A stretch of DNA of 64,000 nucleotides from a virus. Its lineage: Duplodnaviria; Heunggongvirae; Uroviricota; Caudoviricetes. Both the position numbers and the translations under genes were made by a program. The stretch lies in the IMG/VR virus record IMGVR_UViG_3300032007_003791, one strand, 5' to 3'. Positions 17,571 to 63,945 of the stretch are shown in pieces; the first letter of the stretch is position 1, and each line of letters opens with the position of its first letter. The notes below the pieces were generated by a model. It ran no database searches. It worked only from the letters and a program-made list of their open reading frames with translations, and was not told the DNA's origin.

Positions 17571-17586
17571 TCCTCTGTTTTTTCGG

Positions 17587-17608
17587 TCCCCGGCATCCGT
17601 GTCGGGGT
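17587..17608 (+). terminator. Stem-loop after the major pilin (attenuator or mRNA stabiliser)
   Basis: CCCCGGCA/TGTCGGGG stem with no downstream U-tract. Confidence 0.5.
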
Positions 17609-17616
17609 CCGTTCCT

Positions 17617-17664
17617 GGGGAACGGGTAACTGGCCTTTGACGGGTTCGAATCCCGCGTTCCCCG
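17617..17664 (+). ncRNA. tRNA-like minihelix (acceptor stem plus T-arm, no D or anticodon arm)
   Basis: GGGGAAC/GTTCCCC 7-bp stem; CGGG-TTCGAAT-CCCG T-arm stacked in canonical register; only 16 nt between the stems; no encoded CCA. Confidence 0.65.
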
Positions 17665-17686
17665 CAAGTTAGAAATGATATGAAAC

Positions 17687-18556: not shown

Positions 18557-18568
18557 AAATCAGCAGAT

Positions 18569-28400: not shown

Positions 28401-28597
28401 CAAGCCCAGGCTGATCAGCTCCAGTGATAAGGCTCATGCCTTTGGATATGTGGCCGGGAGAGGGTGTGTGTCATTTGTTTTGCTTATCACCCTTTCCGCC
28501 CGGAAGGTGTTCCTTTCGGGGCCCCATCGGAGCGTTCAAGCGTGCTGTGCGAAGGGCGCTTTGGGCCCGAAATCACATCACGCTCAGGCTTGTAGCG

Positions 28598-28863: not shown

Positions 28864-30504
28864 TCAAGGGTGTCCGATTCCGTTTCTTTTCTTGAATTCC
28901 AGTGAGTAGACCCTGTCGTTGGAATAGGTTGCGGGCCTGCCGTCGATTGTTTTCCAGTTTTTCAAGTAAAAGCCGCCCTTCTTTGCAAGGCCGCTGCACC
29001 GGCAGATTTCTTTCGCTTCAAAGTCAAGAACGAAGGAAACGGATTTTCCGTCGATGCTTCCGTGAAGGAGGAGGCCGGTTTCCTTTCCGATGGTCTTCAG
29101 CGGGAAGCGTTCCGTGAGCTGAATTCCGGGATACTGCTTCTTGATTCTTTCCGTCGCCGTCTCCTCGAAGGTTTTACCGACGGGCTCTTCATCAACGGCA
29201 GGGACGGGAATGTTCACCGTCGCCTTTTTGGGGAAAACAGACCTGGTTTGCGCCAGAGCCCATTCGAAACGTTCCGAGAATCTCTCCTGTTCGGCAGGTG
29301 GTATCCTTACGTTCTTTGCGACCTGGCGCCACTGCTCGACAGCCCCGGTAACCTCTTCGACGATCTCCTCCGCTTCTTTCTTTGACAGCAGGTAGTAATC
29401 GGAAGAGTCGTAGAGTTCCTTGACGGAGGATTGGTTCGAATACGGGGATATGGCAAGAACCTGCGTCCTTTCGAGGGAGGGATTCAGGTCGTATGCCGGC
29501 GAGAGCTCCCAGCCGTCCGGACGCAGAAGGAAGCCATGGTTGCGGAAGTGGTCGTCGTGATTCCCGATAAGGATGTTATATACGATTCTCCGGAAGAGTT
29601 CGCTCGTGTTGCGGGAAAGGTTGTTGATGCCGAAGTCTCCCGCCATTGCGTCTGCGATATCGATATATCCTTTCCCGTCGGTTGCGCCTGCTCCGTCCCT
29701 GAACCCTGTAAGGGTAAGCGAGGAGGCGAAGTGAATCCGCTTGTCAGCATCCCTGTCGAAGCGTTTTGACAGCAGGGTATGATAGGGGGTGGGCCCGGCC
29801 CTTAGAACGCGCGACTCGGCAGTCTTTATCCCGGCCTTCTTTGCGAGGGTGCATGCAAAATGTTCCCAGAGTCCGATATTATATGTGTCTTTCACCGAAG
29901 GTATTTTGGCTATCAGGAGGCTTCCGTCCGTGTCGATGATGTTCAGTTTGGGCCGGGCTCCTCCGAGCGATGAACCGTGCTTCCATAGGTTCTTGAGCCA
30001 TGTTTCCTGGATTGGCTGGTTCTTTCTCTCTGCTTTCTCGATCAGATGTGCTTCCCGGATGAAGGTCTCCAGCTCGGCGATAGGTGGGACGTTCTCCTGG
30101 CCGTTGTCCTGGCCGAGGTATTTCCCGTTATGTTTTAGGCGGAGAGCGCCCATGCGGGAAAAGTCGTCAATGCGGACAAGGTACCCGAAATCGTCGAAGG
30201 TCCGCGGCAGCCTCCGGTCCTTCTTCGCGTCCATGTGTTCCTTCTTGTCGATAAGGGCGCGTCCCCACCTGTCGGGAAGGGCGTCTCCGAGGAAGGAAAA
30301 AAGGTTTCCGGATGCGGCCTGCACGCCAAGGAAGCGTCCGATGTCTGTAGAGAGGTTTACCTTGGGAAATGCACTGAGAAAAGCCTTCTCGTAGGAAAAG
30401 CGGTAGGAAGCGTTCCCTTTTACTCTTTCATACTCCAGGGTTCCCACCTTGGTTTCTTTGCAGAGAAAGTCGAATGCTGCGAGTATTTCAATCGAATACA
30501 TCAT
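28864..30504 (-). CDS. hipA: HipA-family kinase toxin with a C-terminal extension
   Basis: GSSLGGARPK, LIAKIPS, LLSKRFDR, IGNHDDHFRNHGF, LSPAYDLNP; about 120 extra C-terminal residues. Confidence 0.92.
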   Translation of the reverse strand: MMYSIEILAAFDFLCKETKVGTLEYERVKGNASYRFSYEKAFLSAFPKVNLSTDIGRFLGVQAASGNLFSFLGDALPDRWGRALIDKKEHMDAKKDRRLPRTFDDFGYLVRIDDFSRMGALRLKHNGKYLGQDNGQENVPPIAELETFIREAHLIEKAERKNQPIQETWLKNLWKHGSSLGGARPKLNIIDTDGSLLIAKIPSVKDTYNIGLWEHFACTLAKKAGIKTAESRVLRAGPTPYHTLLSKRFDRDADKRIHFASSLTLTGFRDGAGATDGKGYIDIADAMAGDFGINNLSRNTSELFRRIVYNILIGNHDDHFRNHGFLLRPDGWELSPAYDLNPSLERTQVLAISPYSNQSSVKELYDSSDYYLLSKKEAEEIVEEVTGAVEQWRQVAKNVRIPPAEQERFSERFEWALAQTRSVFPKKATVNIPVPAVDEEPVGKTFEETATERIKKQYPGIQLTERFPLKTIGKETGLLLHGSIDGKSVSFVLDFEAKEICRCSGLAKKGGFYLKNWKTIDGRPATYSNDRVYSLEFKKRNGIGHP

Positions 30505-30823
30505 ATTCTTCGTCGTTTTTCTCGTTTTTCCTCATCAGTTTCGCGTTCACGAGTGCTTGTCCCGCTTCATCTTTTTGTGCGAGAAGGAGTATATCCTCGT
30601 CGAGTCCGAGAGCATACAGCACCCGTGCGTATATTCCTATTGATACAGTCGGGGTGCCTTTCTCGACACGCATAAGCGTAAGCTTGGTGCATTGTGCGCG
30701 TTCGGCAACCGCTTCCAGCGACAGAGAGCGCCTCTTGCGGGCGAGCTTGATTTGCTCTCCAGCTGTTTCGAGATTCCGCTGAACTTTCCTTGGAAGGACC
30801 ATTGCCTTTGAGTGTTTAGTCAT
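30488..30823 (-). CDS. hipB: HipB-like XRE-family HTH antitoxin
   Basis: GEQIKLARKRRSLSLEAVAERAQCTKLTLMRVEKG HTH; overlaps the hipA start; -7 box at 30844-30851. Confidence 0.88.
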   Translation of the reverse strand: MTKHSKAMVLPRKVQRNLETAGEQIKLARKRRSLSLEAVAERAQCTKLTLMRVEKGTPTVSIGIYARVLYALGLDEDILLLAQKDEAGQALVNAKLMRKNEKNDEEYDVFD

Positions 30824-31036
30824 CTTGTTTCATTTTGATTTTACAAATATAGTAATTTGTTTCATTATAATGAAATAAGTGGATATATTATTCCAACCAC
30901 ATTTTGCAATGTGGGACCTTGACACGACAGAGGAGAGGCAAGGTCGTTTCCAACCACCCCCCTCCTTTCAGAGATAATGGACAATTCGGTTTTGGATATG
31001 TTTTCCAACCTTATTTTGCGGATTGTCGGAAAAATT

Positions 31037-49034: not shown

Positions 49035-49048
49035 TTAAGCGTTTTGTA

Positions 49049-49086
49049 GAGGGGGCTTGGTTGGAAACAATCAAGTCTCTTTTTTT
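49049..49086 (+). terminator. Intrinsic terminator ending the tra operon
   Basis: GAGGGGGCTTGGTTG-GAAA-CAATCAAGTCTCT followed by a T-tract. Confidence 0.8.
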
Positions 49087-49147: not shown

Positions 49148-49155
49148 TATCTTTG
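49148..49155 (+). promoter_or_regulatory. -7 box for pilus locus 2
   Basis: TATCTTTG, about 175 bp before the first ATG. Confidence 0.65.
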
Positions 49156-49331: not shown

Positions 49332-49943
49332 ATGGATCTTAAGATTAAATTATTGAAACGGATAGTTGTTGTTATTGTCTGTTTCTTGGCATCCATTTGT
49401 GCCGGGGCGCAGACATTCAGCGTAAGCACGAATCTTGGTCGCTGGGCAGAGCTTGGAACGATGAATGTCGAAGGTGGCTATGCCTTTAGCCAGCATTTTT
49501 CCGTTCATGTCAATGTCGCAATCAACCCGTTTACCTTCCGTGCCGAGGAGGCTGATGAGCGGTATGAAGACGTAATGGCCAACACTACGCGTGCTTTCCA
49601 GTATAAGAGGGAAAGTGTGGGGGTGAGCGTCCGTTGGTGGCCCTGGTACGTTTTCTCCGGCTGGTGGGTAAGGGCAAAGGTCCAGTATATGGCTTACGAC
49701 ATTGGAGGTATCCAGACCCCCCAACGGCATGTCGGCAATGCCTTCGGAGCCGGACTCGGAGCGGGGTATTCCTTCATGCTCGGCCAGGAATGGAATATCG
49801 ATGTCGGGGTCGCCGGATGGGGAGGATACCGCATTAAGGATGTCTATGAATCCATCAATACCAACTCCAAGCCGATTGATAACGTCAGGGGATGGTATCT
49901 GTGGCCGGAGGAGATTGTCATTGCTATAACTCATGTCTTTTAA
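49332..49943 (+). CDS. DUF3575 outer-membrane protein
   Basis: STNLGRWAELGTMNVE, VRWWPW; paralog of 13560-14123. Confidence 0.85.
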   Translation: MDLKIKLLKRIVVVIVCFLASICAGAQTFSVSTNLGRWAELGTMNVEGGYAFSQHFSVHVNVAINPFTFRAEEADERYEDVMANTTRAFQYKRESVGVSVRWWPWYVFSGWWVRAKVQYMAYDIGGIQTPQRHVGNAFGAGLGAGYSFMLGQEWNIDVGVAGWGGYRIKDVYESINTNSKPIDNVRGWYLWPEEIVIAITHVF

Positions 49944-51318
49944 TCAAAATGGATTTCTAATAATGTTAGGAAATTTTTTCAGGTATATGACCGTCTCTCT
50001 TCTGGTCCTGGTTCTCGGAAGCCTTATGCTGTCCGGGCGCAGTGTCGGGAGGGGTTTGGGCGCCGCTGATAGTCCGCAGGACACGGCCCTCACTCGTTCG
50101 TTCAGGAACGACACCGTCTCGTTGAGGCTGACCTTCGACCTGGGCGAAGCGACCGTGAACAAGCGCTATGGCGGCAATGGGGACAGGATAGAGTCCTTCC
50201 GCCAGGCTTATAACAGGTATGTCTCAGACTCGGAGACATTCGCCAGCGGCGTCTTCATTCGTGTCGGCACCTCCCCGGAAGGACAGACAGCATCCAATAT
50301 TGAGCTGTCGCGCAAGCGCATGGAGAACGTGCGGGAGTTCATCTGTCACGAGTTCGGCATCTCGCCGTTCAATGTGTATGTGACCTCCGATGGTGAGAGC
50401 TGGAGCGAGCTGGCCGGTTATATCCGTGCGCTCGATGTCCCGTGGAAGGCAAGCGCGTTGAAGATTATTACGATGAAGCCAACGTGGAAGATTGATGGCA
50501 ACGACATAGAAGATAACCGCAAGGCGCGTCTCCGCCAGCTTGACAACGGGCGGGCATGGCGTTATCTGGAGGAGAACGTATTCCCGAAGATGCGCTCCGC
50601 CTACGGCGACGCTATGTTCGTCTTCTCGCACAAGACTTCTGTAACCGAGGCGGCTCCTCCTGTTGTGCAGGTTCAGGGCCCCCGTGATACCGTGTTTGTC
50701 GCCGTGCCCAGTTACTTCGACGAGAAGACCTCGCTTTTGAACGTATCGCCCATCGACCCGAAGTATTACAACCGTCTGCGTGGGAAGTCCTTCCTGATGG
50801 GCATCAGGACCAATATCCTTGCTATCCCGCTGGTTAACCTTGGCCTGGAAGTCCCGTTCGGCAGGCACTTCTCCCTTGGTATGGACATCTATTACCCTTG
50901 GCTCAAGCGTAATGCCTATCATAAGGAATGCACGCAGATGGTCGCCTACGGGATGGATGTCCGTTATTGGCTTGGGCGGGATAACGTTCCGGCGGAGGCA
51001 CGTCTGCTCGGGCATTCGTTCGGCATCTACGGAGCCGGCGGGCATTATGACTTCCAGCGGAACTGGAGCGGGCATCAGGGGACGTTCTTCAATATCGGTT
51101 TCGACTGGATGTATGCCTTCCCGATCTTCCATGGTACGATGCACATGGAGATTGAATTGGGGCTGGGATTCATCTACTCGAAGGCGACGCCTTACTACTG
51201 CTATGAGCCTTATGGCGACTGTATCCGCGAACCGGGGGCAATAAGGATTGTCCGGTGGTACGGCCCGACGAAGGCGCAGGTGTCCATCGTTGTACCCATC
51301 TACAGACGTAAGAAGTAA
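49933..51318 (+). CDS. OmpA-like domain fused to a C-terminal DUF3575 barrel
   Basis: TSPEGQTASNIELSRKR, GESW, FPKMR; then IRTNILAIPLVNLGLE, YPW, GHSFGIY, YGPTKAQVSIV. Confidence 0.8.
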   Translation: MSFNQNGFLIMLGNFFRYMTVSLLVLVLGSLMLSGRSVGRGLGAADSPQDTALTRSFRNDTVSLRLTFDLGEATVNKRYGGNGDRIESFRQAYNRYVSDSETFASGVFIRVGTSPEGQTASNIELSRKRMENVREFICHEFGISPFNVYVTSDGESWSELAGYIRALDVPWKASALKIITMKPTWKIDGNDIEDNRKARLRQLDNGRAWRYLEENVFPKMRSAYGDAMFVFSHKTSVTEAAPPVVQVQGPRDTVFVAVPSYFDEKTSLLNVSPIDPKYYNRLRGKSFLMGIRTNILAIPLVNLGLEVPFGRHFSLGMDIYYPWLKRNAYHKECTQMVAYGMDVRYWLGRDNVPAEARLLGHSFGIYGAGGHYDFQRNWSGHQGTFFNIGFDWMYAFPIFHGTMHMEIELGLGFIYSKATPYYCYEPYGDCIREPGAIRIVRWYGPTKAQVSIVVPIYRRKK

Positions 51319-51345
51319 GGGCTATTTGCAAAATGAGGTTGGAAA

Positions 51346-52347
51346 ATGATTAAAGCATACGAATACAGATTCAGGTATCTCCGGACCCGTGTGGCAGCCC
51401 TCGTGGCTTCCGCCACGGTCCTCCTGTGTGCGGCGGGTTGCCGCCATATACCGCTCTACGACGGCCAGACCGGCGTCTATATGAAGGTCGAGCTCGTGGT
51501 CGACAGCCAGATGCAGGAGAAAATCGACCAGGGTAAGGCTCAGCTCCCCGGTGGCCTGAAGGTCCTTTTCTTCAATAACGAGACGCATGAGTTCGTTGCG
51601 GAGGATTTTCTTCCCCTGCATGGCGGGTTCATCGATGTCCCTGTCGGGACGTATAATATCCTTGTCTATACGGTGGGCAACGAGACGACCATCGTCCGCA
51701 ACACCAGGCGCCAGGGGACGGTCCAGGCTTACACCAACTCGCGTGGCATGTCGCTGATGATGACGCGTTCGGATGAGGACGGGAACGTCATAGACAATAT
51801 CCAGTATCCCATCGTCAACGAGCCGGATTACCTTTATGTCGGCACTGCGGAAAATATGTTCATCCCGCCCAAGTCCGACATCTCCGAGACCGTGCGTATT
51901 CATGTGGAGCTCAAGTCCATCGTGGAGACGTGGACCTTCATCGCCAGGGATATCGACGGAGCCGACCGTATCAGCCACATGTCCTGTTATGTCACGGGAC
52001 AGATACAGGAGCGTTACCTGTGGGACCTGCGTTATTCGGATAACGTCTGTGCTATCCCGTTCGCTGCCGGTTATGATGTCGACGGCGGGATGATAAAGGG
52101 CGAGTTCACCACTTTCGGTAAGCACCCGATGGCCCTGTCGGAGGTGTTCCTCAATGTACAGGTCGTCCACGCCGACGGGGCGCTTTATCAGTGGATTTTC
52201 AACGTGACGGATCAGTTCACTGACCCGGACAACACGAAACACGAACTTATAGTAACAGAGAAAATCGTTATCCCGGACACGGAGGCGGGCGGCCTGACGC
52301 CGCATGTCAACGACTGGTCCGCCGAGATAACCAATGTCCCCCTTTAA
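51346..52347 (+). CDS. DUF5119/FimB-Mfa2-like anchor pilin lipoprotein
   Basis: Lipobox AAGC-RHIPLY; VPVGTYNILVY; PDYLY; C-terminal PHVNDW. Confidence 0.78.
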   Translation: MIKAYEYRFRYLRTRVAALVASATVLLCAAGCRHIPLYDGQTGVYMKVELVVDSQMQEKIDQGKAQLPGGLKVLFFNNETHEFVAEDFLPLHGGFIDVPVGTYNILVYTVGNETTIVRNTRRQGTVQAYTNSRGMSLMMTRSDEDGNVIDNIQYPIVNEPDYLYVGTAENMFIPPKSDISETVRIHVELKSIVETWTFIARDIDGADRISHMSCYVTGQIQERYLWDLRYSDNVCAIPFAAGYDVDGGMIKGEFTTFGKHPMALSEVFLNVQVVHADGALYQWIFNVTDQFTDPDNTKHELIVTEKIVIPDTEAGGLTPHVNDWSAEITNVPL

Positions 52348-52397
52348 ATGCGTAAAGCATATTCCCTTTTTATTAACCTTTTTAATCCATCTATCAG

Positions 52398-53732
52398 ATG
52401 AAAAAAGCATTTCTTTTTCTGAGCGCCGCCCTCCTGGCGATGGTGGCCTGCAACAAGTCCGAGACCGTCAAGATCGAGGACCCTTCCAAGCCGGGTGAGA
52501 TGACCTTCAAGGCCCTCTCGTCCGTTCCTACCAAGGCCGGTGAACTGACCGGTATCTCCCTCCCCAAGACCTACGGCATCTACGCCGCAGCGACACAGAA
52601 GAACGCCTCCGGCCTCATCGAGAACCGTTCTTTCTTCGCGGACCCGTTCGAGCAGCTGTTCGGCACCACCGAGGATGACCCTGCAGGCATCGGCACCGCC
52701 TCCGCAGCAAGTGACGGCCGCAAGTGGCATGCCGGGACTTACAACAGCGGTACCAGCGCCTTCTCGGTGACTCCCATGTACTGGCCTATCGGCGGCGTAG
52801 TGATGGATTTCCTTGCCTACAGCCTTCCGATGGCCTCCCATGTTGACTGCATCGGCGGTTCCCATGTGGATCCCCTTCCGATGAACTCCAGCGCCAAGTG
52901 GGCCGCCTGCTGGGATAACCAGCGCAGTGACGTCGCCTCCAAGTTCACTTTCTATGACGTGGACACCTATGTCAACCAGGTGGACCTGATGTATGCTGCG
53001 GCCAACGGTCAGACGAGCAAGGCCAACGGTGGTGGTTCCGGTGCGAACTCGGTGGCCATGGAGTTCAATCATGCCCAGGCCCTCCTTATCTTCAACGTCC
53101 GCGTTGACGAAGAGGAAGTGGGCGGTAAGCTCCAGATCGACGAGATCGGCTTCTATACCCCCGACCGTGTGGACGCGATGCTTGAGCACCAGCTGCAACT
53201 CGCAAGCGGCAACAGCTCCCACGTGCTGGCCGACCTGACCGACGCCGATGTCACTCTGAAGACTTTCGGTACCTTCTGCGTGGACAACAGCCGCAACGAC
53301 CTTCTCGCATCCTGGTCCTTCGGTAAGGACCGTGCCGACGCCGCTGTGTCCCCTACCCGTAAGGAGAACTTCAAGATGAAGAGCATCGGCGCCGGCGCAG
53401 TGTCCGCCGCCAATACGACGGTGCTTGCACAGGCCGCTCCCAACAACGCGCTGAAGATCGACTACGGTCAGCCTATCCCCTTCGTGGATGCTACCGGAAG
53501 TCAGTTCCATCAGCTTGGCGAGACACTCCTGGTGCCCCAGCAGGAGAAGGTGAACTTCACCATTACCTACACCATCGGCGGGAAGACGATGTTCTATACC
53601 TACAACGATTTCCGCGGTGTATGGGAGAAGGGTAAGAAGTACATCTACAATCTTGACCTGGACATCAACGAGATTGTCATCACTGAGGAGGTCAACGACT
53701 TCGTGGCTGCACCCAATGTGGTCAATCTGTAG
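52398..53732 (+). CDS. Fimbrillin-family major (stalk) pilin of locus 2
   Basis: Lipobox MVAC; PTKAG; YWP; DLMYA; FNHAQALL; WEKGKKYIYNLD...ITEEVNDF donor strand; followed by a hairpin at about 53748-53773. Confidence 0.85.
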   Translation: MKKAFLFLSAALLAMVACNKSETVKIEDPSKPGEMTFKALSSVPTKAGELTGISLPKTYGIYAAATQKNASGLIENRSFFADPFEQLFGTTEDDPAGIGTASAASDGRKWHAGTYNSGTSAFSVTPMYWPIGGVVMDFLAYSLPMASHVDCIGGSHVDPLPMNSSAKWAACWDNQRSDVASKFTFYDVDTYVNQVDLMYAAANGQTSKANGGGSGANSVAMEFNHAQALLIFNVRVDEEEVGGKLQIDEIGFYTPDRVDAMLEHQLQLASGNSSHVLADLTDADVTLKTFGTFCVDNSRNDLLASWSFGKDRADAAVSPTRKENFKMKSIGAGAVSAANTTVLAQAAPNNALKIDYGQPIPFVDATGSQFHQLGETLLVPQQEKVNFTITYTIGGKTMFYTYNDFRGVWEKGKKYIYNLDLDINEIVITEEVNDFVAAPNVVNL

Positions 53733-53787
53733 TTGAATGCAATCAATCCCGGCGGACCTGACCGTCCACCGGGGTTCAAGAAAATAT

Positions 53788-55011
53788 ATGATTATGATGA
53801 AAAGACATATCATTTTAACGAAAGCGGCCGTTGCGGGTTTCCTTGTCTCCGCCGGGATGCTCGTTGCCTCCTCGTGCAAGAAAGAGTCTCCGGCTTTGAA
53901 CAGTGCTCCCGTCACCGTGGAGCCTGCCACGGAGGGGGAGACGGACGTCCCGGATAACGACGGCACTCCTATTGAGATCATGAGTTCATGGTCAGGTGAA
54001 GGGGAAGGGGAGACGAAGGGCGTGCATCAGATGACCAACTCCTCCATCGTCACCGACCGCTTTGGGCTCTTCGCCTGGTGGAACCGTACCGATAACCCGT
54101 TCGACGGAACGCTCACGGGACATGAATGGCTGGAGAACGCCCAGATGCAGTATATCGGGGCGAGCGGGGGACGCGGACGGTGGCGCTGTAACCCTCAGGC
54201 CTTCTGGCCGTTCGGCTGTAACCTCACTTTCTTCGCCTACGCCCCTTACATGCCGTGCACCGGCGGGATGCTGACTCTCCCTAACGGAGAAGCGTCTTAT
54301 ATGCCGCGCGGGACGTTCGTCCAGGACACCGATCCGGCCCGGCAGGTCGACTTCTGCATGACTAACCCCGTGATGGACCGCAGGAAAGCCGACGGCGAAG
54401 TGCCGCTGGAGTTCTGGCATGCGCTGACGCGTGTCCTCTTCTATGTCAACCTGAACGCGGCTTCTTCGGAAACGGGCCGTCTCTATCCTGATGACGACCA
54501 CCAGTACCGCGTGAAGTCGCTTGTCCTGGAGGGGATTGTCAACAGTAATAAGTTCACTTTCTCCGGACGCAATACCGTCGCCTGGGACCAGCTCCCCCGC
54601 GCGGACCTGTCGAAGCGTGCACAGGCTTACAGCCTCTCCATTGCTTCCGGCACGCTCGCGAAGGAGCCCACGCCCTTCGAATGGGATATGGAGTCCTACT
54701 CGGGGCTGGAGCGTTACAAGTGCATCAACGGTGTGCAGGCGGGGGTCCTTTACCTGCTTCCACAGCCGATGACCTCGAAGGCGAAGGTGACCATGGTCGT
54801 GTCGAAGGGCTACTGGAACGGCAGCACCTGGACGGAGACGGACGTGCTCGACCCGTTCGTCATCACCATGCCGACGGAGACCGTCTGGAAACCCGGTCAG
54901 ACCGTCGCTTACTCCGTATCGCTCGACATCACCCAGTGGGAGGAGGTTGAGTTCAGCGTCACCCTGCTGCCCTGGGGCAGCGCCAATGATTCGACCACGT
55001 TCCCCGTGTAA
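53788..55011 (+). CDS. Fimbrillin-family minor pilin
   Basis: Lipobox ASSC; ETKG; FWP, FFAYAPY, FWHALTRV, WKPGQTVAYSV, FSVTLLPW. Confidence 0.85.
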   Translation: MIMMKRHIILTKAAVAGFLVSAGMLVASSCKKESPALNSAPVTVEPATEGETDVPDNDGTPIEIMSSWSGEGEGETKGVHQMTNSSIVTDRFGLFAWWNRTDNPFDGTLTGHEWLENAQMQYIGASGGRGRWRCNPQAFWPFGCNLTFFAYAPYMPCTGGMLTLPNGEASYMPRGTFVQDTDPARQVDFCMTNPVMDRRKADGEVPLEFWHALTRVLFYVNLNAASSETGRLYPDDDHQYRVKSLVLEGIVNSNKFTFSGRNTVAWDQLPRADLSKRAQAYSLSIASGTLAKEPTPFEWDMESYSGLERYKCINGVQAGVLYLLPQPMTSKAKVTMVVSKGYWNGSTWTETDVLDPFVITMPTETVWKPGQTVAYSVSLDITQWEEVEFSVTLLPWGSANDSTTFPV

Positions 55012-55052
55012 GGCAGAAGTGACTGTCGGTAATTTGATTTACGGTTTTTTCA

Positions 55053-56105
55053 ATGAAAGGAAAAATTCTCATACTCTCTGCGGCCTGCCTCGTCGCTGCG
55101 TGCGCGAAGCCTTTCGAGGTCTTCTACGGTGAGACGGAATCCCTCTCGGACGAGAAGGTGTTCTTCTCCATCACGGAAGACTCGGAGTTCTTTGTCGATA
55201 CGTTGTCTGAGGGGTATCAGCCCACGAAGGTAGTCACCGCGACAAGCCTCCCTTCCTTCAAGGCCGCCTGCACGAAGGGCGCCCCGGGGAGTGAGCATAC
55301 GAGCGTGTGGAATAACGTTGCCTTTACGGATAACGGCAGCGGGACGTTCCTTGGCGGGCAGTATTGGCCTCACAGTGACCAGGGGTACAATTTCTACGCC
55401 GTTGCGGCGACGGACGTCTCGGATGCGGTGTCCGGTCCCGCTCTTGCGGCCCAGGCTCCCGCGATGACCTTCTCTCCGGCAGGGACTACGATAACGACGA
55501 CGGGCGGCACGCAGGATGTCGTGTGCGCCTATCTTCCCTATAAGAGTGGGACCATCGGCGTTCCGGAGACGGAGAAGGCCATTTATAAGACATGTAACGG
55601 CCTGACGTTCGAGCATATCTACTCGCGCCTGTCGACGGTCACCGTCAGTACCGATGCCCTTTATTGCGTGTACAACGTCACCGTCTGGCTTGTCAACGCG
55701 AAGACAGGCGGCACGTATAACCTCCGTACCGGGAAAAGCCGTACCGACGGGACGGGATGGAGCAGCCTCACGCCGACGACGGATGCTGATACACAGATTT
55801 ACCGTAACAGTGGAAGTATCGCCGTCAGTTCCGGTCATGTGGGGGATAACAATAATATTTACGTAGTCCCGGGTTCCTATTACCTGAAGGCTTCCTGGAC
55901 CGCAACCATTGACGACCCGCTGACCACTGACCCGTATATCCAGACCTATAGCGGCGTCGTGTCGTCTACGCCTGTCTCCCTGCAGGGGGGCAAGGTGAAC
56001 GCCCTCAGCGTCACACTCTCCGGCAACGCCACCGAACTGACCTTCTCCGTGTCCGTCCTGCCGTGGACGTACAACGAGGTGGGGGATGTCGGGTTCAACC
56101 ATTGA
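55053..56105 (+). CDS. Fimbrillin-family minor pilin
   Basis: Lipobox VAAC; PTKV; YWP; FEHIYSRL; KTGGTYNL; FSVSVLPW. Confidence 0.85.
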   Translation: MKGKILILSAACLVAACAKPFEVFYGETESLSDEKVFFSITEDSEFFVDTLSEGYQPTKVVTATSLPSFKAACTKGAPGSEHTSVWNNVAFTDNGSGTFLGGQYWPHSDQGYNFYAVAATDVSDAVSGPALAAQAPAMTFSPAGTTITTTGGTQDVVCAYLPYKSGTIGVPETEKAIYKTCNGLTFEHIYSRLSTVTVSTDALYCVYNVTVWLVNAKTGGTYNLRTGKSRTDGTGWSSLTPTTDADTQIYRNSGSIAVSSGHVGDNNNIYVVPGSYYLKASWTATIDDPLTTDPYIQTYSGVVSSTPVSLQGGKVNALSVTLSGNATELTFSVSVLPWTYNEVGDVGFNH

Positions 56106-56143
56106 CAGCATATTCAAAATTAACAAAATAAAGATTTCCGATT

Positions 56144-57202
56144 ATGACTAAGAAACTTTTCATTGCCATTCTGGTCGCTTCCATGGCCTCTGTATCCTTT
56201 ACCGCTTGTCAGAAGCACTCCGATGCTTCGGATGAGCTTATGCCTTCCGACGGCGCAATCACGTTCGGCGTCAGTGGCGAGGGGCTCGTCACCGGCGAGG
56301 TGACGACGAAGGCCACTACCATCACTCCGACGACCTCCGTGACTAACTTCAAGGCGCTGGCCGTCACCGGTACCCCCGGTTCGTCCGAATCTGCGGTGTG
56401 GAACAACCGTCAGTTCTCTAACAGTTCAGGCACTTACTCGGCGTCCCCGAAGGCGTATTGGCCTTCTTCCAATGCGTCGTACTCGTTCTATGCGGTGGCG
56501 GCAGGTCCGAGGAACTCCGCTGCGGCGGTGGTGACCGACGTCCCTAACATGACTGCCGCGGCGGCCGGGCCGTCCATTAGTGTCCCCGTCGACTACGGCC
56601 GGGACCTCATCTGCGCATTCCTTCCGTACTCCACCGGTACCGCAGGAACGCCTGAGGCGGGGAAGGCCATCTACAAGACAAAGAACAATCTCGTGTTCCG
56701 CCATGTGTTCGCACGTATCTCCACCGTCTCGGTGAGCAACGTGGACGCAGCTGCGACGATCTCCAATATCTCCATCTGGCTGAAGAACACCAAGACCGGT
56801 GGAACTTATAACCTCTATACCGGGCGTGCTTCGAATAACGGTACCGGTTGGAGTTCTCTCCTTCCCGCCGACGGGACGAACGAGCTTCTCCTGCAGAACA
56901 CCAGCAGCTCCCTTGCTCCCGGCTCATCCGCTTCGACTACCGGCAGCGTATACAACGCTACGGACCAGTCTTATTACATCGTGCCGGGCACGTATAAACT
57001 GATTGCGACCTGGACCGCTTCCGTCGACCAGTACACCCAGACTTATTCTTCCAAGGAGTCCACGGCCTCGTTCAGTTTCGTGGGCGGAGCCATCAATGCT
57101 GTCTCCTGCCGCTTGTCCGGCGATCCGGCCGAGCTGCAGTTCTCCGTCAGCGTGACGGACTGGACCAACAACTCCGTCGGTCCCGTGAACTTCAACCATT
57201 AG
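56144..57202 (+). CDS. Fimbrillin-family minor pilin, paralog of 55053-56105
   Basis: Lipobox FTAC; TTKA; YWP; FRHVFARI; KTGGTYNL; FSVSVTDW...FNH. Confidence 0.85.
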   Translation: MTKKLFIAILVASMASVSFTACQKHSDASDELMPSDGAITFGVSGEGLVTGEVTTKATTITPTTSVTNFKALAVTGTPGSSESAVWNNRQFSNSSGTYSASPKAYWPSSNASYSFYAVAAGPRNSAAAVVTDVPNMTAAAAGPSISVPVDYGRDLICAFLPYSTGTAGTPEAGKAIYKTKNNLVFRHVFARISTVSVSNVDAAATISNISIWLKNTKTGGTYNLYTGRASNNGTGWSSLLPADGTNELLLQNTSSSLAPGSSASTTGSVYNATDQSYYIVPGTYKLIATWTASVDQYTQTYSSKESTASFSFVGGAINAVSCRLSGDPAELQFSVSVTDWTNNSVGPVNFNH

Positions 57203-57235
57203 TAGTTGGCTCTTGTTTGTTGTCAGGAGTGAGCG

Positions 57236-58996
57236 ATGATTGTGTGTAATCATATATCACGATTGTTTGTCATGGTGCGGGCTGTTCTGCTGTCCGTGTC
57301 GTGCCTGATGGTCTTTTCCTGCGGGAAGGAAGTCATTCCGGAGACGTACACTGACAACGAGATTGCCCTGTTCCCCAAGAGCATCGACGGAGGGCTGCAG
57401 ACCAAGGCGGTGACGACGCTCTCGACGCTTGAGTCCAGCGGTTTCCGCGCCTCCGCCACCACGGTGTCCGGCGATACCGAGACGCAGGTGTGGACGAACT
57501 CGCTCTTCACGAAGTCCGGAGAGCTGTTCAAGGGCGGACGTTACTGGCCGTCCACCAATCGCGGGTACAGGTTTTACGGAAGCTCGTCTGCGTTGACGTT
57601 CACCTCTTCCGGCAACACCGTCACGGTTCCGGAAGGGAACACCGCCGATGTCGTGTGCGCCTATAAGGCCAGCTCGAACTACATGACTGCCAACAGCCTG
57701 GATTTCCATCATATCCTGTCGAAGATAACGACCGTGCGCGTCAACGCCGAGTCGCCGTGTACCATATCCAATATCACCATCAGCCTGGTTGATGCCAAGA
57801 CCGGCGGGGTGTACAACCTTCGCAGCGGAGCGTGGAGTAGCAAGACGCCAGCTTCGTCGTCGAATAGGCAGCTTTACCGCAACGCGGGTTCCGTCGCCGC
57901 AGGGAGCGGACATACGGGTTCGGATAACGATTACCTCTTTGTTCCGGGGAGTTACTACTTGCAAGCATCTTGGACGGCGACGGCAGGAGAGTATACGAAG
58001 ACTTATACTAACAAGCTGTCCACCTCGGCTGTCACCTTCGCTGCGGAGAATCAGTATTCCGTAACGGCTAATTTGTCCGGCGACCCGACTAAAATCGAGT
58101 TCGCGGTTTCCGTTGAACCCTGGGGTTCGAACACTGTTGCCATCGGGACCTTCCCGATATACTCCGGGGCTATCAGGGCTCCGTACAGTGTAAGTGATTC
58201 GAAGACGGTCTATTTTGCTCAAGGTAACCTGCAGGCGACCTACAACGGTTCTTCGTGGACGTGGAAGTTCGCGGACTATCAGTGGGATTACGTGGGGAAT
58301 GCAGCCGCGAATATCTCCATCAATGGCGACGGGACTGTTTCATCGAATGGTACGGTAGACCTGTTCGGCTGGGTGGGAGCCTCGTCCACCTGGACGGGGG
58401 TTGCAATGTATGGGATTAGTAATTCCGAAACGACAAACAGTACAAATACTTACGGTAACGTTATTACTGAGTCCTTAAAGGCTGATTGGGGTTCCATCCC
58501 GGGGGTTGTGTCCGCTTATGGTGACGGCTGGTTCACGTTATCGTCGACCGAGTGGAAATACGTCATCAGCGACCGCACTTCTGGCGCCACCGTGAACGGC
58601 ACTCCGAACGCCCGTTACACCGGGGCGACCATCAACACGGACGGGACTGGCGTCAACGGTATCATCCTTTTCCCAGACGGAGTGACCATCGCCTCGAGTG
58701 AGGTTACTGCTTGGGGAACAGTGAACAGCACGAGTTCCTGGGCGACGAAATGCACCACCGCCCAGTGGTCCGCCCTCGAATCGAAGGGTTGTGTGTTCCT
58801 TCCCGCTGCGGGCTACCGTTACGGCGCGAGTGTCTACAGTGTAGGGTCCTACGGCTACTACTGGTCCAGTACGCCGTACTCCGGCAATGTTTACTACGCG
58901 TACCTCGTGTACTTCTACTCGGGCGGCGTGTACCCCCAGAACGACTACGGCCGTTACGGCGGCTTTTCTGTTCGTCTGGCCCGCGACGTTAACTGA
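57236..58996 (+). CDS. Fimbrillin-domain tip adhesin with a C-terminal CLec-type DGR-target-like domain
   Basis: Lipobox VFSC; fimbrillin domain; FAQGNLQ, DLFGW, FLPAAGYR...GYYWSST...GFSVRL. Confidence 0.88.
   Translation: MIVCNHISRLFVMVRAVLLSVSCLMVFSCGKEVIPETYTDNEIALFPKSIDGGLQTKAVTTLSTLESSGFRASATTVSGDTETQVWTNSLFTKSGELFKGGRYWPSTNRGYRFYGSSSALTFTSSGNTVTVPEGNTADVVCAYKASSNYMTANSLDFHHILSKITTVRVNAESPCTISNITISLVDAKTGGVYNLRSGAWSSKTPASSSNRQLYRNAGSVAAGSGHTGSDNDYLFVPGSYYLQASWTATAGEYTKTYTNKLSTSAVTFAAENQYSVTANLSGDPTKIEFAVSVEPWGSNTVAIGTFPIYSGAIRAPYSVSDSKTVYFAQGNLQATYNGSSWTWKFADYQWDYVGNAAANISINGDGTVSSNGTVDLFGWVGASSTWTGVAMYGISNSETTNSTNTYGNVITESLKADWGSIPGVVSAYGDGWFTLSSTEWKYVISDRTSGATVNGTPNARYTGATINTDGTGVNGIILFPDGVTIASSEVTAWGTVNSTSSWATKCTTAQWSALESKGCVFLPAAGYRYGASVYSVGSYGYYWSSTPYSGNVYYAYLVYFYSGGVYPQNDYGRYGGFSVRLARDVN
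58811..58980 (+). other. DGR variable-region-like segment VR1
   Basis: All 15 Tyr codons are TAC and putative variable codons are mostly NNC, as expected from adenine mutagenesis of AAC codons. Confidence 0.75.
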
Positions 58997-59039
58997 TCTC
59001 GTCCAGTAATTCTGGTTGTTAGAAAATGGATCTTAAGAT

Positions 59040-60998
59040 ATGAAAAAAATCGTTCTTTTTATTTCCCTGGTGCTCCTGGCGCTTTCTTCCTGTTCGAAGG
59101 GCGGTCTGGAAGAGGGCTGGATCTCCGACGGTCTCATCGTCTTCCAGCAGTCCGGCCTTCTTTTCTCAGCTTCGGCTGAGACCAAGGCCACGGAGGTGAC
59201 GGAGTCGACGCTTAACGGCAGTGGTTTCAACGTCTCCTGTACCACCGGTTCGGCGGGAAGTGAATCGAACGTGTGGAATAACGTTGCGTTCTCCAAGTCC
59301 GGCAGTTACTTTGTTGCTGGAGGGGGCGGCAAGTGGTGGCCGGATACTAATCCGAGTTATCATTTTTTTGCGTCCAACGCGGCCCTGACGTTCAATGCCG
59401 GAGGCTGTACCGTCGCGGCTACGAATGCAAGCGATGTGGTTTGCGCTTACATGCCGTCTCCGACTTATAAATCAAGGAACACGCTTCAGTTCAAGCATAT
59501 CTTCGCCCGTATCACGGACGTGACCTTCTCGGCCGCTGACGGGTATACCATTTCAGGCATCTCCGTCTACGTTACTCCGAAGACGGGCGGAACGTATAAT
59601 CTTCGTACCGGCAGCGGACAGACTGATGGTACCGGCTGGAGCTCCCTGACGACAGGAAGCGCAACCGCGATTGCCAATTCCACTCCGGGCACGAAATCAA
59701 ATAATCTTTATCTCGTGCCTGGACGCTATACGATTTCCGCATCTTGGACTGCAACGAAAGGGGATTACACGAAGACTTTCAGCAACAAGACTTATGAAAT
59801 TAACGTTGTCGGCGGGAAATGTAATGTCATTACGGCAAGTCTTGTTGGAGATGCTTCGGCTATTGAGTTCGCCGTGTCGATAACACCTTGGAGCAGCGCC
59901 CCTACGATTGAAAGGGTAGCGGCGGATTACCAGGATAACCTCGATTACTTGACGTTCTACTGCGACGAGGCGGGGACGATTGGGTGGAAGTGTTCCGATG
60001 CGTCCATTGCAAGGACTATCCAGTATAGTAAGGACTTCGGTGCTACGTGGACGGACCTTACGTCTACGACCAGTGGAGCGACTGTGGCTGTCAATGCAGG
60101 GGATATTGTGTGGTTCAAGGGGAGCAATGGAGCATATTCGAACGGCTCTTACTTCAACCAATTTACTCTTTCCAATAAGGCTCATGTATATGGAAATGTA
60201 AACTCTTTGACGGGGAATTACACATCTGTCAGCGAGTATTGTTTTTTAAATTTATTTAGGAGTTGTTTTAACCTTTATACATACGAGCACAAGAAGATAA
60301 TTCTTCCTGCTACAACACTGGCGAATCGCTGCTATGCCAATATGTTCTATGGTTGTTCCTCACTCAAGACAGTACCCGAGCTTCCTAACACGACGCTGGC
60401 GGACCAATGCTATTACGGCATGTTCTCTGATTGCACTTCGCTCAAAGCAGCGCCAGAGCTCCCCGCTACGACGCTGGCGTACCGATGCTATTTCGGCATG
60501 TTCTCTGGTTGTACAAGTCTTACCATAGCACCACAGCTTCCTGCTACAACGTTGGCAAGCGACTGCTATTACGCCATGTTCAATAATTGCACCTTACTCA
60601 CGTTAGCACCAGAGCTCCCTGCTACGACGCTGGCGAATGGCTGCTATGGCAGTATGTTCCAGGGTTGCACTTCACTCACGACAGCACCAGAGCTCCCTGC
60701 TACGACGTTAGCGCAGAACTGCTATGGTTACATGTTCTATGGGTGCACCTCGCTCACGACAGCCCCAGAGCTCCCTGCTACGACGTTGGCGAACAGCTGC
60801 CACCAATTCATGTTCTATGGATGTACCTCACTGAACTACATCAAGGCTCTCTTCACTACGACTCCTTCTTCGACTTATACTTATAACTGGGTTAGAGGCG
60901 TTGCCCCCACGGGTACTTTCGTAAAGTCTTCCGCTGCGACGTGGAACGTGACGGGAAATAATGGTGTGCCTACGGGTTGGACGGTGATAACTGAATAA
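59040..60998 (+). CDS. Fimbrillin-domain tip adhesin with a BspA-like LRR array
   Basis: Lipobox LSSC; ETKA; FKHIFARI; about 7 units of the 26-aa repeat xxMFxGCTSLTTAPELPATTLAxxCY. Confidence 0.88.
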   Translation: MKKIVLFISLVLLALSSCSKGGLEEGWISDGLIVFQQSGLLFSASAETKATEVTESTLNGSGFNVSCTTGSAGSESNVWNNVAFSKSGSYFVAGGGGKWWPDTNPSYHFFASNAALTFNAGGCTVAATNASDVVCAYMPSPTYKSRNTLQFKHIFARITDVTFSAADGYTISGISVYVTPKTGGTYNLRTGSGQTDGTGWSSLTTGSATAIANSTPGTKSNNLYLVPGRYTISASWTATKGDYTKTFSNKTYEINVVGGKCNVITASLVGDASAIEFAVSITPWSSAPTIERVAADYQDNLDYLTFYCDEAGTIGWKCSDASIARTIQYSKDFGATWTDLTSTTSGATVAVNAGDIVWFKGSNGAYSNGSYFNQFTLSNKAHVYGNVNSLTGNYTSVSEYCFLNLFRSCFNLYTYEHKKIILPATTLANRCYANMFYGCSSLKTVPELPNTTLADQCYYGMFSDCTSLKAAPELPATTLAYRCYFGMFSGCTSLTIAPQLPATTLASDCYYAMFNNCTLLTLAPELPATTLANGCYGSMFQGCTSLTTAPELPATTLAQNCYGYMFYGCTSLTTAPELPATTLANSCHQFMFYGCTSLNYIKALFTTTPSSTYTYNWVRGVAPTGTFVKSSAATWNVTGNNGVPTGWTVITE

Positions 60999-61122
60999 GG
61001 TGTACGACATCCGACAAATACTCTTTTATTCAAAATGGATTTTAAAATTAAATGACTTCTGTCGGATAAGTGCTTTTTTAGGCCTCTGCATAGTCTGAAA
61101 ATACAAACGAGAACATTGGTAA

Positions 61123-63945
61123 ATGAAATATAAACACAGTCTCAGTAAAGATATGAATACAACGAAAAATACCTTCCCCTTTATTGGTGTATTTGCCGCC
61201 TTCATGGTGGCCCTGGCCAGTGCCTCCTGCATGAAGGAGGTCCCGGATATGCAAGTGGTTAGCCAGCCCTCGGACGCTATCGTCTTCGGCGTGGACGACT
61301 CGTTCAGGGCCGAGGTGCAGACGAAGGCGACCGAGGTCACCTCGCTATCCTCGTTCTACGTTACAGCCGTTACCGGCTCTGCAGGGAGTGAGAGCCAGGT
61401 CTGGAACTCGGTCCAATTCAGCCAGGTCGCGGGTAGTAGCCCGGCGACGTATGCCGGTAACAAGTACTGGCCAGCGACCAATCCCAGTTATAAGTTCTAC
61501 GGTTCGAACGTGGCCCTGAACTACGCCGCCGGGGGGACGTACGTCAACGCTTCCAACGCGACGGATGTCGTGTGTGCCTACCTGTCCAGTCCGACCTACA
61601 ACACGAAGAACACGCTGACCTTCGAGCATATCTTCGCAAGGCTCTGCCGCGTGGACATTGTTGCGGCCTCCGGCTATACGCTGTCCAACATCTCGTTGCG
61701 GATTACTCCGAAGACCGGCGGCACGTATAACCTCCGGACCAAGGAGTGGTCGTCGGTAGCGACCGGCACCGCCACCACTATCGCTTCATCGACCGGGGCG
61801 AATAATAATGATATTTTCTGCGTCCCTGGGATATACAGCATCACGGCGTCGTGGGTGGCGAGGGACGCCAGCGGCGCATCCGTGACGCACACCAACGAGG
61901 TATGTAACGTGCCCCTGACGGGGGGTAAGACCAACAATATCAGCTGTGTCCTCGGAGGTGATATCACCTTCGGCATGGATCTGCAGGACTATGCGGATTA
62001 CGATTACAGGGACAATCTCGCATACCTGACGTTCTACTGCGACGAGGCGGGAACGATTGGGTGGAAGTGCTCGAATGCCTCCATCGCAAGGACTATCCAG
62101 TATAGCAAGGACTTCGGTGCGACATGGACCGACCTTACGTCTACGACCAGTGGTGCGACAGTATCTGTCAGTGCAGGGGATATTGTGTGGTTCAAGGGGA
62201 GCAATACGGGGTATTCGAACGGCTCTTACTATAATCAATTCACTTTATCCAACAAGGCTCATGTATATGGTAATGTGAATTCCTTGACTGGGAATAATAC
62301 ATCGGTAAGCGAGTATTGTTTCAAGAGGTTGTTTTATAATTGTTTTAACCTTTATACATACGAACACAAGAAGATTGTTCTTCCTGCTACGACGCTGGCG
62401 CTCCGCTGCTATGAAGGCATGTTCAATGGTTGTTTCTCACTTACCACGGCGCCAGAGCTTCCTGCTACGACGCTGGCGAGCCGCTGCTATTACAGTATGT
62501 TCCAGGGTTGCAACTCTTTGACGTCTGCTCCTGCGCTCCCCGCCACGACGCTGGCAGATTGCTGCTACGATTCCATGTTCATTGGTTGCACGAGCCTCGC
62601 TATAGCCCCGGAACTCCCAGCAACGACGTTGGCGGATTACTGCTACGAAAATATGTTCTATGGTTGCTCTTCATTGACTACGGCTCCTGCACTTCCCGCC
62701 ACGACGCTGGCACTTTGCTGCTACGAAAATATGTTCTATGAATGCACCTCCCTCACCACAGCACCAGTGCTCCCTGCTACGACGCTGGCGAACACCTGCT
62801 ATTACAGCATGTTCCAGGGTTGCTCCTCTTTAACGTCTGCACCTGCGCTCCCCGCCACGACGCTGACGGACTACTGCTACGATTCCATGTTCATTGGTTG
62901 CACGAGCCTCGCTATAGCCCCGGAACTCCCAGCAACGACGCTGACGGACTACTGCTACGAAAATATGTTCTATGGTTGCTCTTCATTGACTACGGCTCCT
63001 GCACTTCCTGCTACGTCATTGGCGGCTGGCTGCTATGAGAGCATGTTCTCTGGTTGCTCCTCACTTAATTACATCAAGGCTCTCTTTACAACAACTCCAT
63101 CTGATGAATATACGTTAGATTGGGTCTCCGACGTCGCCCCCACAGGCACCTTCGTGAAGTCCGTCGCTGCGACGTGGAACGTGACGGGTGACGACGGCGT
63201 GCCTACAGGGTGGACGGTGATGACTGAGTATCAGGCGTACCTTACCAACGGCCATGCGTTTGTGGACTTGGGACTGAGAAGTAACGGTAACAAGATTCTC
63301 TTTGCAACCATGAACGTCGGAGCATCTTCCCCGGAAGAATACGGCTATTACTTCGCCTGGGGCGAGACCTCTAAACGCTATACCAGCATAAGTGACGACT
63401 CTGTTGTAGGCGGTTCTTTCGAATGGTCTAACTGCCCTTATCACACCGGTAGTACCTATAACACCGGCTGGAGTAAGTACATTCCTACCGGTAAGGAGTC
63501 TTACGGTGTGGTCGACAACAAACTGACTCTCGAAGCCGGTGATGACGTGGCATCCGCCCTCTGGGGCGGCAGCTGGCGTATGCCTACCGCCGAAGAACTC
63601 TGCATGCTGATTAACGGAGATGGTTCCAGCACCGACTACGATGAAGCAGACAACGTTACCTACTCCTGGACTAACGACTACAACGGCACAGGCGTACATG
63701 GTTACATCATCACCGGTAAAGGCTCTTTCTCCTCGGCCTCGCTCTTCCTCCCTGCTGCTGGCAACTGCGATGTCACGGACCTGTACGACGCTGGAGTCTA
63801 CGGCTACTATTGGTCCCGCACGGTGAGCTCGGGCTACCCGGCTTACGCCTGGCTCCTCTTTTTCGTGGATGGCGGCCAGCTCATGGACAGCAACGACCGT
63901 TACCGCGGTCAATCCGTCCGGCCCGTGTTGGTTATTCCTGAGTAG
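61123..63945 (+). CDS. Tip adhesin: fimbrillin + BspA-like LRR array + CLec-type DGR-target-like domain
   Basis: Lipobox SASC (start may be MNTTK at 61153); about 9 LRR units; VDLGL..FATMNVGASSPEEYGYYFAWGET, WRMPT, FLPAAG...YWSRT...GQSVRPV. Confidence 0.88.
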   Translation: MKYKHSLSKDMNTTKNTFPFIGVFAAFMVALASASCMKEVPDMQVVSQPSDAIVFGVDDSFRAEVQTKATEVTSLSSFYVTAVTGSAGSESQVWNSVQFSQVAGSSPATYAGNKYWPATNPSYKFYGSNVALNYAAGGTYVNASNATDVVCAYLSSPTYNTKNTLTFEHIFARLCRVDIVAASGYTLSNISLRITPKTGGTYNLRTKEWSSVATGTATTIASSTGANNNDIFCVPGIYSITASWVARDASGASVTHTNEVCNVPLTGGKTNNISCVLGGDITFGMDLQDYADYDYRDNLAYLTFYCDEAGTIGWKCSNASIARTIQYSKDFGATWTDLTSTTSGATVSVSAGDIVWFKGSNTGYSNGSYYNQFTLSNKAHVYGNVNSLTGNNTSVSEYCFKRLFYNCFNLYTYEHKKIVLPATTLALRCYEGMFNGCFSLTTAPELPATTLASRCYYSMFQGCNSLTSAPALPATTLADCCYDSMFIGCTSLAIAPELPATTLADYCYENMFYGCSSLTTAPALPATTLALCCYENMFYECTSLTTAPVLPATTLANTCYYSMFQGCSSLTSAPALPATTLTDYCYDSMFIGCTSLAIAPELPATTLTDYCYENMFYGCSSLTTAPALPATSLAAGCYESMFSGCSSLNYIKALFTTTPSDEYTLDWVSDVAPTGTFVKSVAATWNVTGDDGVPTGWTVMTEYQAYLTNGHAFVDLGLRSNGNKILFATMNVGASSPEEYGYYFAWGETSKRYTSISDDSVVGGSFEWSNCPYHTGSTYNTGWSKYIPTGKESYGVVDNKLTLEAGDDVASALWGGSWRMPTAEELCMLINGDGSSTDYDEADNVTYSWTNDYNGTGVHGYIITGKGSFSSASLFLPAAGNCDVTDLYDAGVYGYYWSRTVSSGYPAYAWLLFFVDGGQLMDSNDRYRGQSVRPVLVIPE
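63760..63927 (+). other. DGR variable-region-like segment VR2
   Basis: NNC-rich codons (GAC, TAC, GTC, AGC, CTC, GGC) within the conserved frame; ends CAATCCGTCCGGCCCGTG. Confidence 0.65.

Follow-up and report, generated by a model that had tools for sequence, protein, structure and literature searches.

Organization of the pilus operon

We analysed a stretch of DNA of 64,000 nt from the IMG/VR record IMGVR_UViG_3300032007_003791 (hereafter the window), in which positions 49332-63945 hold a locus that our results support as a type V (FimA/Mfa) pilus operon on a conjugative element, with two of its three large tip-like pilins ending in segments akin to the targets of diversity-generating retroelements (DGRs). 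The region comprises ten open reading frames (ORFs), all on the plus strand and closely packed (gaps of -11 to 124 nt), which encode two DUF3575 outer-membrane proteins, one DUF5119 anchor, four pilins and three large tip-like pilins. A Pfam scan of the products assigned DUF3575 twice, DUF5119 once and Mfa_like_1 three times (in the proteins of 444, 424 and 352 residues); in the adhesin parts it detected LRR_5 in the 652-residue protein (tip2) and, weakly, Lcl_C in the 940-residue protein (tip3). An earlier reading made from the letters alone (below, the sequence-only reading) had proposed a single operon with an anchor, pilins and three large tips, and the ten plus-strand ORFs with their DUF5119 and Mfa_like_1 matches bear it out. 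It had also counted one platform gene, in place of which we found two DUF3575 genes, and had distributed stalk and minor-pilin roles that are not assignable from sequence.

The first gene (49332..49943, +) encodes a 203-residue DUF3575 outer-membrane beta-barrel-like protein (PF12099, E=6e-28), and the second (49933..51318, +) a protein of 461 residues in which DUF3575 (PF12099, E=4e-17) makes up the C-terminal half, the N-terminal part giving only a sub-threshold hint of OmpA. They are followed by a DUF5119 lipoprotein (51346..52347, +; PF17145, E=1e-18; PDB 5cag, E=7e-8; lipobox AAGC), which is a candidate anchor of the Mfa2/FimB class, and by two Mfa_like_1 pilins: a stalk candidate of 444 residues (52398..53732, +; PF13149, E=9e-18; lipobox Cys18; PTK|A motif) and a protein of 424 residues (53737..55011, +; PF13149, E=1e-11; lipobox SSC), called as 404 residues in another assembly, whose true start is probably an internal Met. 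Next come two smaller pilins, P0004 (350 residues; 55053..56105, +) and P0005 (352 residues; 56144..57202, +; Mfa_like_1, E=3e-11), and finally the three large proteins, tip1 (P0001, 586 residues; 57236..58996, +), tip2 (P0002, 652 residues; 59040..60998, +) and tip3 (P0003, 940 residues; 61123..63945, +).

The Bacteroides -7 consensus is TAnnTTTG, and a candidate box of this kind, TATCTTTG, can be read from the sequence at 49148..49155 (+), ~175 nt before the first gene; the hairpin terminator of the preceding gene, which encodes 742 residues, stands 5' of the box, and this arrangement suggests that the operon may have its own promoter. The sole long intergenic gap of the operon (60998-61123, 124 nt) contains an inverted repeat (ATCCGACA/TGTCGGAT) and then a T run; attenuation or separate control of tip3 is therefore possible.

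The pilin scaffold and its adhesin heads

P0004, P0005 and the three tips have in common the motif KTGG[TV]YNL (KTGGTYNL in P0004), which is invariant across 17 relatives, as well as DNA repeats of families D4-D7 and D9 (D4, D7 and D9 in P0004). The proposal that all three tips are built on one fimbrillin scaffold is thereby upheld, with two headless paralogues to be added. P0004 and P0005 close with a VGxVxFNH tail (VGDVGFNH and VGPVNFNH, respectively), and the three large proteins run on into heads. A lipobox Cys was found in the anchor and in all seven pilins, in line with type V lipoprotein precursors, and six of these pilins carry a T-K-[AV] motif 25-35 residues past the Cys, which is where type V pilins are processed. 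The two-lobed transthyretin-like fold of type V pilins was recovered in the model of tip1 (predicted local distance difference test score, pLDDT, 70.5), accompanying the Mfa2/FimB-class anchor encoded in the operon: residues 37-296 match 4qb7 (BVU_2522) with a Z-score of 14.7 and a root-mean-square deviation of 4.1 over 247 aligned residues, and this domain also resembles Mfa1, Mfa2, Mfa3 and Mfa4 (Z 7-8) as well as FimA. The N-terminus of tip3 was modelled at low confidence.

The pilin domain of tip1 (approximately residues 37-296) is followed by a 270-residue DUF8237 lectin-like head, whose confidently modelled C-terminal domain shows weak similarity to the C-terminal domain of Legionella Lcl (8q4e, Z 5.3) and to the lectin-like domain of EgtB (Z 4.9). 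Tip2 and tip3 are paralogues with 59% identity, in which the scaffold is followed by a beta-sandwich, an array of leucine-rich repeats (LRRs) and a cap. The arrays consist of 26-residue LPxTxL/CYxxMFxxC repeats, seven in tip2 and nine in tip3, corresponding to tandem 78-nt repeats at 60264-60875 and 62341-63108. The LRR_5 match of tip2 scores 29.4 bits, over the Pfam cut-off of 27.7 (E=8e-7), and TIGR02167 matches as well, in accordance with the earlier description of tip2 as ending in an LRR array; it has no lectin head. In the model of tip3, residues 400-700 reach a pLDDT of 75-93 and the LRR part resembles 4fd0, 4h09 and 4fdw, so that tandem repeats of ~26 residues and a modelled solenoid together place these arrays among the BspA-type LRRs (LRR_5/PARCEL). 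Confident folding of tip3 is limited to the beta-sandwich and the LRR part; beyond the cap the protein continues into a 240-residue Lcl_C/DUF1566-type head. NNC-rich segments close both lectin-type heads.

Alternatively, the three large proteins might be lipoproteins of the surface or the periplasm, or components of a single accessory tip complex, and have no more in common than the pilin-like N-terminal domain. Among the published tip-like DGR targets of Bacteroides, BfrT, BthT and BunT are surface-exposed, whereas BovT and BfiT are tip-like but periplasmic (10.1101/2024.11.15.621889), so that two known targets of this type are not on pili, and incorporation into pili is a prediction for the proteins described here. 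Moreover, three tips with two headless paralogues recall the multi-protein Mfa3-5 tip assembly, and no switch mechanism was found. However, a lipobox, a full pilin domain and, at the distance usual for processing, a T-K-A motif are present in all three proteins, and anchor and stalk genes accompany theirs in one operon, as is the case for the surface-exposed BfrT, BthT and BunT. We therefore regard the alternative as unlikely and treat the three proteins as candidate tips.

Variable ends of tip1 and tip3 and the related DGR cassettes

The sequence-only reading had placed DGR-type domains at the ends of tip1 and tip3. The variable-repeat-like end of tip1 (VR1, 58811..58975, +) aligns codon for codon with the variable repeats (VRs) of two related loci, L018 and L020, and with the template repeat (TR) of a cassette in genome G125. 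In a cluster of a tip1 homologue defined at >=90% identity the members diverge mostly in the last 60 residues, and a comparison of L018 with L020 gives 24 differences within the final 240 nt, of which 15 fall in codon position 1, 8 in position 2 and 1 in position 3. The corresponding end of tip3 (VR2, 63760..63925, +) is hypervariable in six relatives. Full-length relatives of tip3 (P0010, P0011, P0016, P0017 and P0019) show 68-77% identity; the heads of this family are ~90% conserved over 190 residues and then hypervariable in the last 55, with discrete variable positions set between invariant YWSR, P and R..G.SVRPV residues, and the changes fall in NNC codons. The ends of tip1 and tip3 are themselves 48% identical over the last 66 residues and 61% identical over 167 nt of DNA. 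Therefore "unrelated", the word used earlier for the two heads, is too strong; the two ends are nevertheless too divergent to share one template. The LRR array and the lectin-type end ascribed to tip3 stand.

Copies of these ends occupying the position of templates were found elsewhere. When JGI metagenomes were scanned with a degenerate pattern, a cow-rumen contig (L010) proved to contain an orphan copy, 228 nt long, of the tip3-type end (L010:634-861); this copy is 78.5% identical to the window, rich in Asn/AAC codons, bounded sharply on its 5' side and located outside any pilin gene. An exhaustive protein search yielded a second orphan copy of 228 nt (L023). Both directly follow a 179-residue ORF without a Pfam family, and the two ORFs are 46% identical. 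They represent an accessory family of 179-237 residues, without Pfam or NCBIfam match, that lies directly upstream of templates (L010:1-444; L023:179-718; L017:2778-3491, minus strand; L037:486-1046) and is present in 19 of 401 sampled Bacteroidales genomes. At no fewer than ten loci an RVT_1 reverse transcriptase (RT) is encoded 350-900 nt downstream of the accessory ORF on the same strand, and the family is probably the Avd-like factor of this DGR clade. In genome G363 one cassette (contig C83) has an AAC-rich template in its gap, and another (C123) displays the complete order target-accessory-TR-RT, with TR and VR 78% identical. In G125 the template lies between the accessory gene and the RT (C1) and has AAC exactly at the variable sites of the tip1-type repeats; the target adjoining the accessory-TR-RT cassette (C10) is a lipoprotein, and its head shares 41% identity with that of tip1 over 281 residues. 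A third copy in G125 (C15:6758-6952, L045), 85% identical to the C1 template, terminates a protein that bears the same head. This copy is on a separate contig, and therefore non-adjacent targets may exist in this cassette family. For tip3, the link to a lectin-fold target of this kind is limited to the sequence similarity of the last 66 residues and the orphan copies in the template slot.

Other searches were less productive. Two candidate template ORFs of the tip1 type returned by a short-protein search (P0293 and P0291) were rejected as gene fragments in unrelated contexts, a scan of genome contigs for the tip3 head gave one distant locus only, and the pattern scan of viral contigs gave no match. 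In L010, SprT-like and SLT genes stand on the opposite strand past the template, in place of an RT.

The variable sites of the repeats coincide with template adenines. For the tip1 type, 32 of 51 sites with adenine in the TR are variable, compared with 10 of 130 other sites (odds ratio 20, p=5e-14); for the tip3 type, with the L010 and L023 copies, the corresponding figures are 27 of 41 and 30 of 177 (odds ratio 9.5, p=2e-9). Ordinary diversifying selection combined with recombination, without any DGR, could be invoked for such hypervariable ends, and the DUF1566-type end is indeed very widespread (4146 representatives) and occurs also in non-DGR proteins, e.g. in a kinase fusion. This explanation is nonetheless highly improbable, given the match between variable columns and the adenines of templates located in accessory-TR-RT cassettes, the restriction of changes to positions 1-2 of NNC codons, and the presence of truncated, repeat-only copies in the template slot. 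The last ~55 codons of tip1 and tip3 are thus shown to belong to two distinct variable-repeat families served by DGR cassettes elsewhere in Bacteroidales.

Search for DGR components and the present state of the repeats

Several results weigh against a DGR origin of the two ends and against a DGR acting on them here. The window contains no RT-like ORF with a [YF]xDD motif, no homologue of the cassette RT (by tblastn) or of the accessory gene, and, with both strands scanned, no adenine-compatible copy of VR1 or VR2 (at <=6 misfits per 60 nt); no RT is called in the 10 kb downstream of it. The templates identified are relatives rather than cognates, adenines taking 44-50% of the TR/VR mismatches, compared with usually >=75% in true TR/VR pairs (PMC8144416). 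L010, with 48%, was rejected as the cognate template of VR2, and it has no RT within 1.2 kb after the template; its accessory gene and template copy could be a decayed cassette or a template for a distant RT. As to the head of tip3, the Lcl_C match stays below the Pfam cut-off (27.3 versus 34.9 bits) and the model has a pLDDT below 50. A search of the window by blastn gave no third repeat copy. The parts that define a complete DGR, namely RT, template repeat and Avd-like accessory gene, are consequently missing at this locus. Thus the DGR-type lectin end claimed for tip1 is retained as regards the footprints of its VR family and its weakly lectin-like fold, with no DGR in the window to go with them, and the claim that retro-mutagenesis acts at this locus is not supported: with no RT, accessory gene or template in 64 kb, it can only be inferred. 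For the same reason, present-day diversification would need cassettes acting in trans, or else the repeats are frozen.

That both repeats are fossils, i.e. that recombination brought the heads in from DGR-linked loci and that they have since become fixed, leaving three static adhesins, is a serious contender to which we give slightly less than even odds. Besides the missing components, it is favoured by the head of tip1, which is 84% identical at the nucleotide level to the head encoded in L018, an operon of a different type, while the scaffolds are unalignable; this suggests head transfer. Only a single repeat sequence is seen in contigs from the likely source samples: in the Logan contigs of X1 and X2, the runs from which the window probably derives, there are no alternative repeat sequences, and contig L001 is 100% identical to the window. 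However, Logan contigs lose minor variants, the runs may be the source of the window and L001 is probably the same material, so the single sequence is uninformative on activity and invariance is not established. The fossil explanation must further accommodate the intact reading frames of both repeats, the possible non-adjacent target in G125 (C15), and the fact that the examined sequence leaves out no less than 50 kb of the element, along with the entire host genome.

On balance, we estimate the probability that the operon is what we propose and that both ends are of DGR-family origin at about 0.75, whereas active diversification in this element seems to us rather doubtful. The DGR imprint is well supported at the family level; the combined, active three-layer system envisaged earlier (tip choice, LRR shuffling and retro-mutagenesis) is not demonstrated.

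Modularity of related loci

Comparison of homologous loci, which had been suggested as a check for domain swaps and variation of the ends, was informative: related loci vary in the number of tips, in head type and in LRR count. The sequence-only reading named an invariant tip order and sequence as evidence against it, and this is not what we see, because the tips differ among related loci. In a ~96% identical operon from another run the C-terminal half of tip1 is replaced and two tip3-like genes stand in tandem. L008 has the same front end (two DUF3575 genes, DUF5119 and two Mfa genes), followed by five small pilins and two tip3-like genes; directly after its last tip gene, a group II intron maturase domain (GIIM, a non-DGR RT lineage) is encoded at 15684-16040 on the minus strand. 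L006, L018 and L020 are FimA-type operons with a tip1-like gene and then LRR-lectin tips. Scaffold-LRR proteins in the databases contain 5-28 repeats and end with no head, with an Lcl_C-type head or with a DUF8237-type head.

Inspection of inverted repeats at 48.5-64 kb revealed no inversion or switch device for tip choice, which therefore stays an idea. An invertible switch or shufflon was considered and rejected, the inverted repeats being short, imperfect and scattered, with none bracketing a promoter or a tip gene.

Host element and other contents of the window

Directly upstream of the operon are genes for the Bacteroidota conjugation proteins TraG, TraJ, TraK, TraM, DUF4138/TraN and TraO. 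Downstream, the source assembly continues with a tyrosine integrase on the opposite strand, PrsW and another locus of DUF3575/FimA type. The element had been called a plasmid, which our data do not show: PLSDB contains no DNA or protein match for the window, the integrase lies just downstream, and no replicon was identified. Five tandem iteron-like direct repeats of 32 bp (11469-11659) adjoin an ORF of 429 residues (11757-13046, -) without a family or a PLSDB match, and the two may possibly constitute a replication origin and its initiator.

A second type V pilus locus occupies 13560-21751 and encodes DUF3575, a TPR-containing protein of 679 residues, an Mfa1-family pilin of 471 residues, a protein of 289 residues and a DUF4906 protein of 1060 residues. 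The window also contains three ORFs of TnpB/OrfB_IS605 type (6633-7772, +; 9061-10956, -; 26785-28437, -), where a Cas12f-like TNB domain in the first and second ORF points to relics of RNA-guided nuclease transposons on the element, and a HipA-family kinase toxin (28864-30504, -) with an XRE-type helix-turn-helix gene upstream (30490-30820, -). A conserved intergenic element of ~110 nt occurs at 30900-31020 (-) and 49045-49085 (+) in the window and at 880-1000 in L010 (81% identity between window and L010). It includes a hairpin with the loop TGGTTGGAAAC, an 11-mer found twice in the window (0.04 expected), both times just after a gene. No Rfam family was detected in the window or in L010, the intergenic element included.

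Proposed function and evolution

In the scheme we favour, an Mfa-type (type V) pilus operon is cargo of a conjugative element of Bacteroidales from the bovine gut or rumen. The two DUF3575 proteins and the DUF5119 anchor lipoprotein would hold a stalk of Mfa_like_1 pilins; three of the five scaffold paralogues carry adhesin heads in place of the short VGxVxFNH tail, and two are headless. The three large proteins would cap the pili, giving three binding specificities from one operon, and the heads of tip1 and tip3 would have been written by adenine-specific retro-mutagenesis. Present-day diversification, if any, would depend on one or two trans-acting cassettes located in another part of the element or in the host, and over evolutionary time the tips would change also by swapping of heads and by gain and loss of LRR units. 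It is conceivable, albeit improbable in our judgement, that the incoming pilus cargo, with two remote repeats of different template classes, is diversified after transfer by cassettes of the recipient or of the element; equally speculative is the corollary that one or two RT systems would then tune several tips, the LRR-lectin hybrid tip included.

Among the adhesive fibres of gut Bacteroidales, type V pili are the main ones, and in human-gut species their tips have recently been shown to be diversified by DGRs of conjugative elements. The locus carries this picture over to Bacteroidales of the ruminant gut and to a richer design, with several tips per operon, LRR solenoids of variable length before a hypermutable lectin head, two repeat classes and no nearby retroelement. 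Should the repeats still be targeted, it would clearly exemplify DGR mutagenesis acting in trans on mobile cargo; should they be frozen, it would record the spread of DGR-shaped heads by recombination. The accessory gene family that precedes the templates also provides a practical marker for finding such cassettes.

Comparison with known systems

Among the DGRs borne by integrative and conjugative elements (ICEs) of Bacteroides, 38 of 41 cases have as target a type V tip adhesin whose gene comes behind those for anchor and stalk; these tips resemble PDB 4EPS, 4QB7 and 5NF4, an Avd-like gene and an RT are adjacent, and LRRs appear only in a different target group (10.1101/2024.11.15.621889). 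The general notion of transferable, DGR-diversified type V tips is thus already published for Bacteroides ICEs. A full-text literature search retrieved no paper describing LRR-bearing type V tips or fimbrillin-LRR-lectin tips, in agreement with the earlier impression that the tip combining LRRs with a lectin-type end is undescribed; such proteins are, however, no rarity, many being present among metagenomic proteins.

With BfrT, BthT and BunT (Macadangdang et al.) the locus shares an anchor/stalk operon on a conjugative element, a 4QB7-like pilin domain and a lectin-like head with a variable repeat. In those systems a single tip gene stands at the end of the operon, beside the Avd-like gene, template and RT, whereas here there are three tip genes and two repeat classes (one of them mid-operon), and the 64 kb contain no cassette. 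An LRR solenoid separates scaffold from head in the present locus, which comes from the gut of a ruminant and not of a human. The Mfa1 fimbria of Porphyromonas gingivalis is similar in its lipoprotein pilins, its anchor of the Mfa2/DUF5119 class and the presence of several non-stalk pilins downstream. It is composed of the Mfa1 stalk, the Mfa2 anchor and the tip or accessory proteins Mfa3-5, of which Mfa5 has a von Willebrand A domain; in contrast to the present operon, which includes DUF3575 genes, it has neither an LRR nor a lectin head on Mfa5 and no hypervariable repeats.

The LRR parts correspond to the BspA-type proteins (LRR_5, TIGR02167 PARCEL; 4fd0, 4fdw, 4h09, 4fs7) in the 26-residue LPxTxL/CYxxMFxxC repeat and in the solenoid, but differ in their setting, the solenoid coming after a type V pilin scaffold to which it is fused and, in tip3, also preceding a lectin-like head. 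Mtd and TvpA are lectin-fold DGR targets, and together with the C-terminal Lcl/DUF1566 domain of Legionella they share with tip1 and tip3 a C-terminal lectin-like domain with variable positions in the last strands. The likeness to Legionella Lcl is limited, the Lcl_C match of tip3 being sub-threshold and the structural match of the tip1 head weak (Z 5.3).

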